Below are positions 59,553 to 64,000 of a stretch of DNA of 64,000 nucleotides, piece by piece. This DNA comes from a virus (lineage: Duplodnaviria; Caudoviricetes): the IMG/VR virus record IMGVR_UViG_3300014208_000002, positions 64,001 through 128,000 of that record; one strand, written 5' to 3'. Position 1 is the first letter of the stretch. Each line of letters starts with the position of its first letter. The position numbers were made by a program, and so were the translations under genes. The notes under the pieces were generated by a model. That model made no database searches. It worked only from the letters and a program-made list of their open reading frames with translations, and was not told where the DNA came from.

Positions 59553-59966
59553 ATGTTGCCAATACAGCAAATTTTTATAAAACCAAGCACACCTAAATTA
59601 TGTGCCTACACAATAAATACCTCTCCCGATCTTCATTCAATGACTTATGAAGAAATGTATTTTTTTATTGCCCGGCTAGTCTCTCCAGAGGCGGCTAATA
59701 AGGCAAAAGAGCTTATTGATAAAAAAGAAGCCTTTTTTGTAGATATAGAAGAAAATAAAGTATATGAACTTTCTATAGATTATTATGCCGCTGAACAAGA
59801 AGCAAGAAAAATACTTACTAAAATAGATAAGAAAGTAATAGAAAACTTAGTATATAAATCACAAACTCCCGAGCAAAAAAATCCAGTATTAGGAATAGAC
59901 CTTCAGAATAGGATACAACGGTCAATTTTAGGAATAGGCGGAGATAATAATGAAAAGAATAGATGA
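59553..59966 (+). CDS. hypothetical protein
   Basis: First plus-strand gene; overlaps the start of the giant ORF. Confidence 0.65.
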   Translation: MLPIQQIFIKPSTPKLCAYTINTSPDLHSMTYEEMYFFIARLVSPEAANKAKELIDKKEAFFVDIEENKVYELSIDYYAAEQEARKILTKIDKKVIENLVYKSQTPEQKNPVLGIDLQNRIQRSILGIGGDNNEKNR

Positions 59967-62900
59967 AGCATTTTATGATACAAATACTAAAAGTTCTTTT
60001 ATCGGAGACTCTAATAAAATAAACGAAGCTCTTCATATAACTTGGTTAGGTCTTCTTTCTGTACGACAGATAACAGGAAATTCTTTTCGTATAAAAAAAT
60101 TACTTCGCTCTGATAAAGACCTAAATATAACAAGTATTACAGACGACAATAACGATCTAAGCCTTATTGTTAAATTAGCGAATGATGCTGGAATAGTAAA
60201 CAATATAACTGCTAAAAAAATGATTCTGTTTCTTAGAAGTTTAAAACTAAATCCTGATGACCCTATAGATGAAACAATTATTCGTGATTGGTTTGATGGG
60301 TATTCTAAAATATCTCTTCCTAATAATGTTAAAATAAGAGCCATACGAAAACAATTTGTAGATGGAAAAACCTTAGCCGATTGTATTTTTGATGTTTGGT
60401 CTTATTTAAGAATGAATAAAAAAGTTTTAGCTGATACCAATGTTTTTCAATTTGTAAAGCATACAATGTATTTCCCCCCCAAGGGTTCTATAATAGATAA
60501 AAAAGGTGGAAATGCTACAACTGCCGCTACCCCCGCTTCAACTCTTGTCTCTGCACCATCTTCTGCACAAGCCCCTATAAAAAGAGGTCGGGGACGACCA
60601 AGAAAAATTATTGATCCAAATCAAGTTATAGCACAAGTTAACATACAAACTTCTACAACAGTTAACACCCCGACTCAAACAACAGCAAATGATAAACTGG
60701 ATATAGATAAAATAAATGCATATATTCTGCAATTTGACTCATTAACAGGGTTTAAAAACTTACCAGACAAGAATCTAATAAATGATAGAAATTTTATTGC
60801 GTCTCGTTTTTTTAGTACTTATCATGTATCAACAATTTTATCATCGCTTTTTGACTTAATAAAAGAAGGTACAGGAGAATCAGATAGATCAAAAATAGTT
60901 GATTTCTTTCACGATGAATTAGAAGACCTCTTAAAAATGAATCTGGGACTTATCAATCATACGAATCTTCGCACAAGTTCTTTAGAACAACTTGTAAAAA
61001 TTATCTTTATATTATCAGGGTTTGATGATATAACAACAGACTTTTTTGAGAATAATATAAAAGAAATTTATAGCTCAATTAAAGCTACAAATGGAGCAGG
61101 AGAGAGTTTCCTTGATCAGACTGCTTATCATATTTGGAATACACCTATCTTAATAAAGTTTCTTATAAAAGATGAAATAGGTTCTTCTGTAAAAGACCTT
61201 TATTCTTTTGTTTATAAAATTTTTGGCAGTCAAATAAAATATATGAACGCTGTAAGCACAGAAGCAAAAGTTCAAGATATGAAATTATCTAATATGAGAA
61301 AGATAATGCCTTATATTGAACAAAAATTTGATATAGAAAAAATAATTAGTGATGAGTTTGTATCTTTTTCTTATAAAGGTGTTCCACAAAAGAGTAGTAG
61401 ACCTTCTTATTCATATCGTAGTAGACCAAGATCATCAAGAGTTAATTCTACTGAAACAAGATATCTTCCTTTCTTTGTTCTGGATTGTTTTATTGAAGAT
61501 AATATAATTACTGAAAAAGATGTTTATTTAACAGTAAAAAATAAATATGAAACTTCTGCGGAACGCTATAAATACATTGACTTACTCAATTACTTTGGAA
61601 AAAAGTATCGGGAAACATTAGATGTATCTTTAATGTCAGATGCAGAATATATTGATTTACAAAAACAAGAAAGTAATATGAATGCTTATGCTCGTTATCT
61701 TAAACTAATAGAACATAACAGAGAAAACCTATTAGACAATGATGAGTTTATTACAATATTGGAAAGTAATTCTTTTAATTCTTTATATGATGATATTCCT
61801 TTACTACTTTCAAAAGGCGAAGGTGTAAGTGCTTTAATAAAAAAAATATATTCTTACTATAGTCGTTATACTAAACTATTTTCTTTGATTCTTAAATATT
61901 TTATAAAAGAAAAAATACTTAATAATTATAATTTATACCCTACTAATTTTTGGGAATTATATGATTATCTTCCCAGTGATTTAGAAAAAGAAAATTTATT
62001 AAAAATGCTGTCTAATAAAGATAATATAAATAAAGCTCCTACTTTTATAACGCTTCTTATGATGGGCGTAGGAACCGGAAGAATAAAATATGATTATATA
62101 ACACAGTGGATAAAAGATAATTCTTTCTTTAAAGAAGGAAAGTTCTCTTATGGCTCCGAAATAGATAAAGATAGAAACGATGCTTTATCTCAAGCTGATT
62201 GGGATTCTAATAAAAAGTTTGGAAAAATATTCCTTATTGATTTTATTCTAAAAGAGGGAGATAATGCAGATAACTATTTTTCAAACGATAATTATTTTCT
62301 TTATCAATTATTAGACAACTATGTTGAATATGAAGAAAAAGATTGGATGCTTAGTAAAGAATTATCTAATCTGATGGTTGTGGAAAAAGACAAACTCAAT
62401 CAGTTTATTTTAGGAGATTACATCCCAACTGGTAATGCTCTATCGTATGTTTATAAGTCAGTTGTAAAATCTTTTATTCCAAAACAAAATATATTTGAGA
62501 TAATGTATAATAAAATAAAAAAGGATTTTTCTTCTTCTGCTTCATTGCAAAATTTTGATAGTCTTACCTATGTTAGAAATAAATCACAAACCTTTGATTT
62601 TTCATTCTCTGCATTTATGGACTTCCTTTCAAAAGTTGACCCAAAATTATTTTCTGAAATGGCTTTAGTCGCTCCTACTGCCCGTGATTTATTTTCAATA
62701 TTTCTTACTGGAGTTCCTGATTCCATAGAGCCTAAATTAAAAGAACATGCTGTTAATCTCCTATCTAAAGAAAATAATGATCCTTCTTATAGATGGCGAG
62801 GAGATAATATACAGAAAGTTCTTACTGATTGGTCTAAAGTTTATTATTATAAAGACATCGTTCTTTTATTTATTTCTAATACTAATTTCCGAGCGAGCAT

Positions 62901-64000
62901 AAAAAGCGCACGAAGAGTATGGAAGTTTATTGATACAGTGTTTACTTATATAACAGATAAAGATACATTCCAGGGAAATAAGCCTGTAGAAGACTTTCTT
63001 GAATGGTTTGAAAAAAACAATCGTAATAAGTTCTCTCTTCTCATGACACGAAAATTAGCTTATATGAAAGACTCTATCCAATTAACAAAGATTCTTGAAG
63101 ATAAACATAATCCTCTTCCATTAAGTGATAGTGTAAAATCTGACCCTAAATTAGTTCTCAAGTATCTTTCTGTAAATGACAGAACATTAGACCTTGATGA
63201 AACTAATTTTAAAGATTTACTTCCTCCAAAAGATAAGGGAGAAAATTTATTCACTTACATGGACAGGCTTACTAATGCTACTTCTGATATAGTAAAAGCA
63301 TATAATGATAAAATTCCTGATCCAAAAGTAATTCCTACAGATATATCGGACAAAGACCTCTATGAACTTTCACTTGATTTTAATCATAGGTATAATATAA
63401 AAAGACATGGTGATTTGGGATTTAAAATCTTAAAGGTTTTTGAGAGCAACCCCAGCAATAAACAAGAGTTTGAAGACTTCTATAAAGAACTTCAAGCCGC
63501 TGGTAAAAATCCCCTCATTGTTGCTGAACCTCTTTTTCATGGAACAGGAACATTGGCCGCTAATATGATTCTTAGATATTTTTTCCTTCCTTCTATTAGA
63601 GGAGACTCTGTAAAAGTATTTGGACAAAAAATAGGTTCAGGAGATAGTTTGGGTAATGGGGTTTATTTAGCTCCTGGATTAGATAAAGCATTAAGTTATA
63701 TGACAGATAATGCTCGTAATTATAATCAAGCGGCTGGAAATATAGGGTATATCCTTCAATGTAAAGCTATTCTCTATGATGAGGGAGTTGGCTTCAACCA
63801 AGCTAAAGGTTCTCAAAGTTGGAAAAGTAATGAGTATTGTATTCACACTGACCCTCCTACAAAAGCTGTACTCGTAGAAAAAGTATATTATGGTATGTCT
63901 ATACCAATTAGAGAGTTAGAAGATGAATGGGCAAAAAGAGGAATAACAACTCCTCCTGGAGCAAGTGCCTATGGCGACCTGTCAACCTTAAAAGCAGGAA
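59950..64000 (+). CDS. giant protein (>1350 aa, runs off window) with AT-hook and PARP-like ADP-ribosyltransferase domain
   Basis: Manual translation from ATG at 59950 (MKRIDEAF...); absent from ORF track, presumably because no stop occurs in the window; KRGRGRPRK at 60580-60606; LFHGT...GNGVYLA...KALSY...NEYCI at about 63530-63845. Confidence 0.85.
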   Translation, partial: MKRIDEAFYDTNTKSSFIGDSNKINEALHITWLGLLSVRQITGNSFRIKKLLRSDKDLNITSITDDNNDLSLIVKLANDAGIVNNITAKKMILFLRSLKLNPDDPIDETIIRDWFDGYSKISLPNNVKIRAIRKQFVDGKTLADCIFDVWSYLRMNKKVLADTNVFQFVKHTMYFPPKGSIIDKKGGNATTAATPASTLVSAPSSAQAPIKRGRGRPRKIIDPNQVIAQVNIQTSTTVNTPTQTTANDKLDIDKINAYILQFDSLTGFKNLPDKNLINDRNFIASRFFSTYHVSTILSSLFDLIKEGTGESDRSKIVDFFHDELEDLLKMNLGLINHTNLRTSSLEQLVKIIFILSGFDDITTDFFENNIKEIYSSIKATNGAGESFLDQTAYHIWNTPILIKFLIKDEIGSSVKDLYSFVYKIFGSQIKYMNAVSTEAKVQDMKLSNMRKIMPYIEQKFDIEKIISDEFVSFSYKGVPQKSSRPSYSYRSRPRSSRVNSTETRYLPFFVLDCFIEDNIITEKDVYLTVKNKYETSAERYKYIDLLNYFGKKYRETLDVSLMSDAEYIDLQKQESNMNAYARYLKLIEHNRENLLDNDEFITILESNSFNSLYDDIPLLLSKGEGVSALIKKIYSYYSRYTKLFSLILKYFIKEKILNNYNLYPTNFWELYDYLPSDLEKENLLKMLSNKDNINKAPTFITLLMMGVGTGRIKYDYITQWIKDNSFFKEGKFSYGSEIDKDRNDALSQADWDSNKKFGKIFLIDFILKEGDNADNYFSNDNYFLYQLLDNYVEYEEKDWMLSKELSNLMVVEKDKLNQFILGDYIPTGNALSYVYKSVVKSFIPKQNIFEIMYNKIKKDFSSSASLQNFDSLTYVRNKSQTFDFSFSAFMDFLSKVDPKLFSEMALVAPTARDLFSIFLTGVPDSIEPKLKEHAVNLLSKENNDPSYRWRGDNIQKVLTDWSKVYYYKDIVLLFISNTNFRASIKSARRVWKFIDTVFTYITDKDTFQGNKPVEDFLEWFEKNNRNKFSLLMTRKLAYMKDSIQLTKILEDKHNPLPLSDSVKSDPKLVLKYLSVNDRTLDLDETNFKDLLPPKDKGENLFTYMDRLTNATSDIVKAYNDKIPDPKVIPTDISDKDLYELSLDFNHRYNIKRHGDLGFKILKVFESNPSNKQEFEDFYKELQAAGKNPLIVAEPLFHGTGTLAANMILRYFFLPSIRGDSVKVFGQKIGSGDSLGNGVYLAPGLDKALSYMTDNARNYNQAAGNIGYILQCKAILYDEGVGFNQAKGSQSWKSNEYCIHTDPPTKAVLVEKVYYGMSIPIRELEDEWAKRGITTPPGASAYGDLSTLKAG

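Follow-up and report, generated by a model that had tools for sequence, protein, structure and literature searches.

All phage ADP-ribosyltransferases (ARTs) of established biochemistry in the literature covered (T4 Alt, ModA and ModB) are R-S-E enzymes, and work on PARP-type enzymes has been confined almost entirely to eukaryotes and two bacteria. Do large phages also use the PARP type, and if so, for what? The question is raised by a gene at the end of a 64,000-nucleotide (nt) stretch of viral DNA, here called the window, which comprises bases 64001-128000 of the complete 200,726-bp virus record IMGVR_UViG_3300014208_000002 (terminal repeats; 34.7% G+C). A first-pass annotation had read there, from ATG 59950 on the plus strand, an open reading frame (ORF) of at least 1350 codons running off the window. 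It proposed that the protein carries an AT-hook and a PARP-type H-Y-Y-E domain, that it could make poly(ADP-ribose) and that it may be injected with the virion.

A 1351-residue protein with a PARP-type domain

The frame is open as described, with no stop through base 63999. It does leave the window but ends one codon later: extension into the genome record, which the annotation had called for, added one more codon and then a stop (window-equivalent 64003-64005). The ORF thus encodes a complete protein of 1351 amino acids (aa) and is the biggest of the genome. A GGAG lies 8-11 nt ahead of the ATG. The gene, its catalytic domain and the key residues are as follows.

59950-64000 in the window, stop just outside, plus strand: large ORF, 1351 aa (frame reading and genome record)
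63232-63945, plus strand: PARP-type ADP-ribosyltransferase domain, residues 1095-1332 (profile, fold, invariant residues)
63538-63540 (H1197), 63664-63666 (Y1239), 63685-63687 (K1246), 63697-63699 (Y1250) and 63832-63834 (E1295), plus strand: key ART residues

The assignment of residues 1095-1332 as a PARP-type H-Y-E ART is secure because a family profile matches PARP1, fold searches return only PARPs, the key residues are conserved and two relatives exceed the Pfam PARP threshold. H1197 lies in PLFHGTG, Y1239, K1246 and Y1250 in GNGVYLAPGLDKALSY, and E1295 in KSNEYCIH. These motifs, quoted in order by the annotation, are not there by chance. In an alignment of 108 homologous domains, G1235, G1237, Y1239, K1246, Y1250, G1266 and E1295 are invariant and H1197-G-T-G is >90% conserved. 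The profile of these 108 domains, compared with PDB sequences, matched PARP1 with E=1.5e-11, followed by PARP2, tankyrases and PARP3. In the alignment to PARP1, FHGTG falls on WHGS and GdGiYfsn..dKalqY on GKGIYFADMVSKSANY, and a sub-profile aligned the irSpEw stretch of the family on PARP1 LLYNEY. The family profile was needed for this: a single-sequence PDB search with the C-terminal 261 residues found no PARP, and a word-indexed homologue search with residues 1080-1351 returned only the protein itself. A PHROGs search matched residues 1096-1313 to profile positions 889-1092 (of 1214) of phrog_18612, which has unknown function (E=3e-36).

The structure comparison that the annotation had suggested for the C-terminus also found the PARP fold. 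The AlphaFold model of the domain has a predicted local distance difference test score (pLDDT) of 88.2 and a predicted template modelling score (pTM) of 0.85. With this model, the top 50 Foldseek matches were PARP catalytic domains without exception (E about 2e-8 at a probability of 1.0), and a VIA structure scan superposed it on tankyrase, PARP1 and PARP2 (Z=15.2, 177 residues, root-mean-square deviation 3.6). The domain is ~15-18% identical to solved PARP structures. The relatives that exceed the threshold of the Pfam PARP model (PF00644) are P0005 (35.7 bits) and P0054 (31.7 bits). The domain was also correctly placed in the ART clade opposite to T4 Alt, ModA and ModB, which are R-S-E, the other clade being H-Y-[EDQ] (PMC9503650). 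The conservation of all five key residues (invariant, or >90% for H) in the 108 sequences argues for a working active site under selection. We consider it quite likely, from these residues and the fold, that the domain is an active PARP-type transferase.

Two conserved modules flank a variable middle region

An exhaustive search of 1.84 billion cluster representatives (50% identity clusters, E<=1e-3) found 272 relatives, most of them 1000-1700 aa long with the ART near the C-terminus. In full-length comparison, conservation was confined to the first ~200 residues and the ART; in most relatives, the sequence between these two modules could not be aligned. The combination of N-terminal domain and C-terminal ART was present in 57 of the 74 ART-bearing proteins of 67 viral contigs, and in most of 150 cluster representatives. 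The corresponding features upstream of the ART in this protein are listed here.

59950-59967, plus strand: leader MKRIDE ending I-D-E, candidate propeptide or cleavage site of the T4 Alt/capsid-targeting type (family consensus)
59968-60519, plus strand: conserved all-alpha N-terminal domain, about residues 7-190 (96-sequence alignment, AlphaFold)
60580-60606, plus strand: AT-hook KRGRGRPRK, residues 211-219, in a Ser/Ala/Pro/Thr-rich linker (sequence)
60685-63231, plus strand: middle region (residues ~246-1094) in which no domain was recognised (Pfam, Atlas, iterated profile)

The N-terminal domain matches most relatives, down to E=1e-32 (phmmer), and a hidden Markov model (HMM) of the family N-terminus hits this protein at residues 6-206 with E=2e-51. 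A word-indexed search with residues 1-205 returned only the protein itself. The domain is modelled with confidence (AlphaFold pLDDT 90.7) as 11 helices. Its fold had no significant match in the PDB, AFDB clusters, the Atlas or VIA-wide (best Z 5.3), where only a helical-bundle background appeared. Matches in BFVD were the N-termini of other family members, plus weak ones to ~250-aa phage proteins. We also tried this domain as a relative of T4 Alt and rejected the idea, as there was no similarity (hhalign probability 0.3).

The protein begins MKRIDEAFY. Across the family, the N-terminal consensus is [LI]-x-E-N-[ST]-[LFI]-Y, with L/I in 81, E in 88 and N in 84 of 96 sequences, preceded by leaders of ~2-28 residues. 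T4 Alt begins MELITELF. In T4, the head-internal proteins and Alt have N-terminal propeptides that are removed by gp21 at a cleavage motif such as LIE; for the internal proteins, the propeptide (10-19 residues) is at the same time a capsid-targeting signal (PMC9026906). By analogy, the family proteins may be cleaved after (I/L)-x-E. N-terminal [ILMV]-x-E is enriched about twofold among the ORFs of this phage (54/277, versus 21-33 at control positions). A Peptidase_S77 search for a T4-type head protease recognised none, but the controls were silent too, so this was uninformative.

Similar N-termini were seen elsewhere. A 191-aa ORF in the window (49410-49985, minus strand) begins MKRIDES, its first six residues being those of the PARP-like protein, and a cohort of ORFs near the head genes (genome 166-198 kb) begins M(R/K)(I/L)I(K/R)E(S/D). 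One family member on another viral contig (L073:4797-8951, plus strand) begins MESFKTYIAEG, which appears close to the ten-residue capsid-targeting sequence of T4 IPIII.

No Pfam domain was found in the middle region of this protein or of seven relatives, and the Atlas gave no match for it. When residues 230-1090 were used for an iterated profile, it picked up a single one of 198 family proteins, and the stretch upstream of residue 1095 is not conserved. Neither this protein nor the seven relatives have a WGR, zinc-finger or PARP regulatory (PARP_reg) Pfam domain.

The AT-hook reported by the first-pass annotation is real as a sequence: KRGRGRPRK has the R-G-R-P core with basic flanks of a canonical AT-hook, making DNA tethering plausible for this member. 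It is not a family trait, as only 8 of 199 family proteins contain AT-hook-like cores. Where present, they always fall within residues 194-303, the linker that follows the N-terminal domain. Judged from sequence, the element looks like a recurrent, optional tether that would bind DNA.

Family distribution and prior record

Relatives in GenBank come from phages of Aeromonas, Stenotrophomonas, Xanthomonas, Ralstonia, Pseudomonas and Ochrobactrum, and for some of them an annotation as PARP-domain or ADP-ribosyltransferase protein already exists. A PARP with intact triad from Aeromonas phage Aeh1 was listed by Perina et al. 2014 (PMC4245714), and the PART (PARP) family is among the commonest viral ARTs in the survey of Iyer et al. 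2022 (PMC9503650). The paper on Stenotrophomonas phage Ps15 mentions ORF165 only as the second largest protein. Because relatives had been annotated and listed in surveys, the finding is less novel than the first-pass annotation implied. What the present analysis supplies is an uncatalogued conserved N-terminal domain and a candidate cleavage motif.

On four viral contigs (L017, L018, L033 and L034), the family has been amplified locally: two or three tandem paralogues separate RegA/gp32 from the DNA polymerase gene.

Polymer or single ADP-ribose, and NAD+ supply

The Lys/Glu pair that the annotation linked to poly(ADP-ribose) elongation is present, but it fails as a marker of polymer synthesis. 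PARP3 also has H-Y-E and the Lys/Glu pair (alignment: GKGIYFASENSKSAGY). PARP3 is a mono-transferase, and the pair therefore does not tell poly- from mono-ADP-ribosylation. On the sequence evidence, we regard polymer synthesis by the phage ART as unlikely.

Genes that would remove ADP-ribose or resupply nicotinamide adenine dinucleotide (NAD+) were sought as well. The complete genome has no match to ADP_ribosyl_GH (PF03747; ARH) or Macro, and we found no NAPRTase family/NAMPT gene in it. Elsewhere in the family, 7 of 67 loci (L016, L021, L028, L051-L053 and L066) have a gene for an NMNAT-type cytidylyltransferase as the immediate neighbour of the family gene, suggesting that NAD+ resupply is coupled to an NAD+-consuming enzyme. 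NadV/NatV is present in annotated phages that carry family members.

Genome setting, gene neighbourhood and promoter motifs

The genome is that of a tailed phage, a myophage that is not T4-like. Its gene set includes a family A DNA polymerase (genome 74320-76971, minus strand; window 10320-12971), topoisomerase II, an SbcC-like protein and a clamp. The polymerase has <=26% identity to any phage record. Together with the T4-like accessory genes (topoisomerase II large subunit, SbcC-like, clamp), this places the phage in a deep-branching jumbo myophage lineage. The window also encodes a 709-aa protein (50681-52810, minus strand) that matches phrog_1735, of unknown function, with E=1e-263; it is a very conserved phage protein. 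Immediately upstream of the large gene are two further features.

59537-59545, plus strand: CTACTAATA promoter-like motif, 7 nt upstream of orf137, heading the block with the PARP-like gene (motif statistics)
59553-59966, plus strand: orf137, small ORF of unknown function, its last 17 nt shared with the start of the large gene (ORF reading)

The overlap makes translational coupling of orf137 and the large gene possible, and orf137 may be a coupled partner such as a chaperone, inhibitor or immunity protein. It had no Pfam, PHROG or Atlas match and gave no fold lead. Gene order is the same on the contig of P0003, the closest relative, where a 131-aa ORF lies upstream and overlaps the PARP-like gene by 4 nt. 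At the sequence level, no gene neighbourhood was shared between this phage and the 67 related loci, and orf137 had no detectable relatives in them. The large gene diverges from a sliding-clamp-like gene; downstream of the large gene come unknown genes and a Holliday-junction resolvase gene. In 7 of the 67 loci, the family gene has a Zeta/AAA_33 kinase gene beside it. A Zeta-toxin/AAA_33-type kinase related to those kinases is encoded in this genome at 138121-138858 (plus strand), ~10 kb past the window end, and begins MKEILDE.

CTACTAATA occurs 23 times in the genome, versus 4.5 times in shuffles. All but two of these copies (21/23) precede an ORF on their own strand by no more than 152 nt. 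The distance is mostly 18-40 nt, and a Shine-Dalgarno sequence lies in the gap. Downstream genes include those for tail sheath, fibre and major head protein. The other copies in the window are at 58435-58443, 40455-40463 and 30423-30431, all on the minus strand. From these statistics, CTACTAATA is probably the phage's own, perhaps late, promoter. We rejected the T4-type late promoter TATAAATA as a promoter of this phage, as its 61 sites (~52 expected) were not placed before genes. Sigma-70-like promoters and terminators were not enriched around the large gene.

Among the relatives, TATAAATA at -35 to -53 precedes 9 of 43 non-redundant family genes, versus 45 of 1112 other genes of the same loci (Fisher p=9e-5). 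T4 alt has TATAAATA at that same spacing, ~30 nt upstream.

Packaged effector or intracellular enzyme

We propose that the protein is a large modular effector with an active H-Y-E ART that is made late, trimmed, packaged and injected in the manner of T4 Alt, and we give this reading a probability of roughly 0.5. The large gene would be the second of an operon headed by the CTACTAATA promoter-like motif, and the protein would be made late, following the logic of T4 Alt. A head protease would trim it after the N-terminal (I/L)-x-E, and the capsid would carry it for delivery with the DNA into the next cell. During infection, the C-terminal ART would use NAD+ to modify a macromolecular target, either a host protein or nucleic acid, with auto-modification possible. 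The helical N-terminal domain and the fast-evolving middle region would form a targeting or regulatory scaffold, and in this member the linker AT-hook would add affinity for AT-rich DNA. Virion injection, as the first-pass annotation had it, gains from the leader motif, the late-promoter enrichment and the phage-specific promoter motif, and loses from the presence of relatives in replication-gene clusters. Packaging, taken by itself and by analogy with T4, is tentative, with a chance slightly short of even. We consider improbable the broader idea that the whole family (at least 270 clusters at 50% identity) is loaded into capsids via a T4-like leader for targeting and cleavage and, once injected, attaches ADP-ribose, perhaps as polymers, to nucleoid or replication targets of the host.

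Several observations weigh against the packaged effector. Of the 67 related loci, 23 have T4-type replication genes no more than four genes away and in the same orientation, with gp44-gp62-RegA-[gene]-gp43 and gp59-gp32-[gene]-DexA-like exonuclease as recurring arrangements. Another relative is located near DnaB, and in this phage a sliding-clamp gene adjoins the large gene. CTACTAATA also stands ahead of non-structural genes, some of them in the replication region, so it does not prove late expression. Conservation of N-S-L-Y, which follows the Glu, may reflect a place in the fold instead of a cleavage site, and the AT-hook is missing from 96% of relatives. This protein scores 14.5 bits with the Pfam PARP model, below the cut-off of 26.7. 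The literature on family members yielded annotations only, and we found no biochemistry, functional study or virion proteomics for any of them. Given the co-oriented location in replication clusters, an intracellular, replication-linked role fits at least as well as a virion role. The same enzyme could remain unpackaged and be expressed with replication and recombination genes, acting on the replisome, nucleoid, repair proteins or DNA ends in a way that favours phage DNA metabolism or blocks host repair and nucleases; the N-terminal motif would then belong to the folded protein. In keeping with this, the gene adjoins the sliding-clamp-like gene and heads a block with the Holliday-junction resolvase both here and in the syntenic relative, the solved proteins closest to it in sequence (PARP1 and PARP2) are DNA-dependent, and an AT-hook suits a DNA-associated role. 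However, late promoters are enriched upstream of family genes, the leader is conserved and similar to that of T4 Alt, and the protein has none of the WGR, zinc-finger or PARP regulatory domains that couple PARP1-3 and bacterial PARPs to DNA. Moreover, the replication clusters of T4-like phages often take accessory-gene insertions, being common sites for them. We give this intracellular role a substantial minority share of the probability.

Neighbouring genes in some relatives suggest a different use, as the toxin half of a phage ART/ADP-ribosylglycohydrolase toxin-antitoxin or superinfection-exclusion pair. An ADP-ribosylglycohydrolase-like gene lies directly upstream of the family member in PX29, Ah1 and Aeh1, an Aeromonas-phage ART-ARG pair has been described as toxin-antitoxin-like (PMC9503650), and here the small upstream ORF appears translationally coupled, in an arrangement that is syntenic in a relative. 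Yet ARH-like neighbours were found only in two Aeromonas-phage loci of 67, the complete genome has no such gene, orf137 lacks detectable relatives in the other loci, and a length of 1351 aa with a conserved N-terminal domain is atypical for a toxin of this kind; the pair is a very unlikely explanation for this gene. An equally slim chance goes to a domain that is no transferase in vivo, being instead a simple NAD+ hydrolase by which the NAD+ pool of the host is drained or reshaped, or a catalytically silent binding module in a structural protein. Some ART-fold proteins are indeed NADases (PMC9503650) and the domain falls below the Pfam threshold, but in ~100 diverged sequences all the residues for NAD binding and catalysis (H-Y-E plus K and Y) are invariant, a pattern of active PARP-type transferases, and a plain NADase would not readily account for the large targeting regions.

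If the broader idea of a capsid-loaded, injected family is true, it would supply the first PARP-type writer shown to act in phage-bacterium conflict, with the hypervariable middle region as an arms-race interface and AT-hooks as an occasional DNA tether.

Comparison with known systems

T4 Alt, a mono-ADP-ribosyltransferase that is packaged in the capsid and injected, is also a large, dispensable-looking phage ART, and the two proteins share a leader ending in (I/L)-x-E (MELITE in T4, MKRIDE here) and a late-type promoter just upstream, which here is deduced from the motif. They differ in the active site, R-S-E in T4 Alt and H-Y-E in the phage protein described here. Packaging and cleavage are proven for T4 Alt, whereas here both are inferred from sequence. 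Polyvalent or MuF-fused injected phage ARTs (Iyer et al. 2017, PMC5512222, as cited in PMC9503650) resemble the protein in joining an ART effector to a large protein with proposed delivery alongside the DNA. In contrast to them, the protein has no MuF domain and only one recognisable enzymatic domain, and its gene is located away from portal and terminase. The Aeromonas-phage ART-ARG pairs (PMC9503650) have an adjacent ADP-ribosylglycohydrolase gene, which this gene does not.

With PARP1/2, PARP3, tankyrases and the Herpetosiphon and Clostridioides PARPs (PF00644), the protein shares the fold, the H-Y-E triad and the GxGxYF...K...Y signature. Unlike these eukaryotic and bacterial enzymes, it has no WGR, zinc-finger, BRCT, ankyrin or PARP_reg domain, and its genome encodes no PARG, macrodomain or ARH. 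The DNA-dependent PARPs (PARP1-3 and bacterial WGR-PARPs) are marked by a WGR/helical regulatory domain that is absent here.

The closest counterparts are phage PARP-domain proteins of the phrog_18612 type (Aeh1 'PARP', Ochrobactrum phage vB_OspM_OC p405, Ps15 ORF165). These share with the protein the C-terminal H-Y-E domain at ~30-35% identity, the N-terminal helical domain, a length of 1000-1700 aa and an origin in large myophages. This phage differs in being not T4-like, with a family A polymerase and no TATAAATA promoters, and this member carries the canonical AT-hook that few of the family have, with neither an ARH nor an NAD-salvage gene beside it. The protein is thus a somewhat atypical new member (non-T4-like phage, AT-hook) of a catalogued, uncharacterised family that is abundant in large phages, with strictly conserved catalytic residues and a fixed architecture. 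Because cultivated carriers exist among the phages of Aeromonas, Stenotrophomonas, Xanthomonas, Ralstonia and Ochrobactrum, its packaging, its target and the choice between mono- and poly-ADP-ribosylation are open to standard phage experiments. The family is not a new kind of system; its value is as a good target for experiments.

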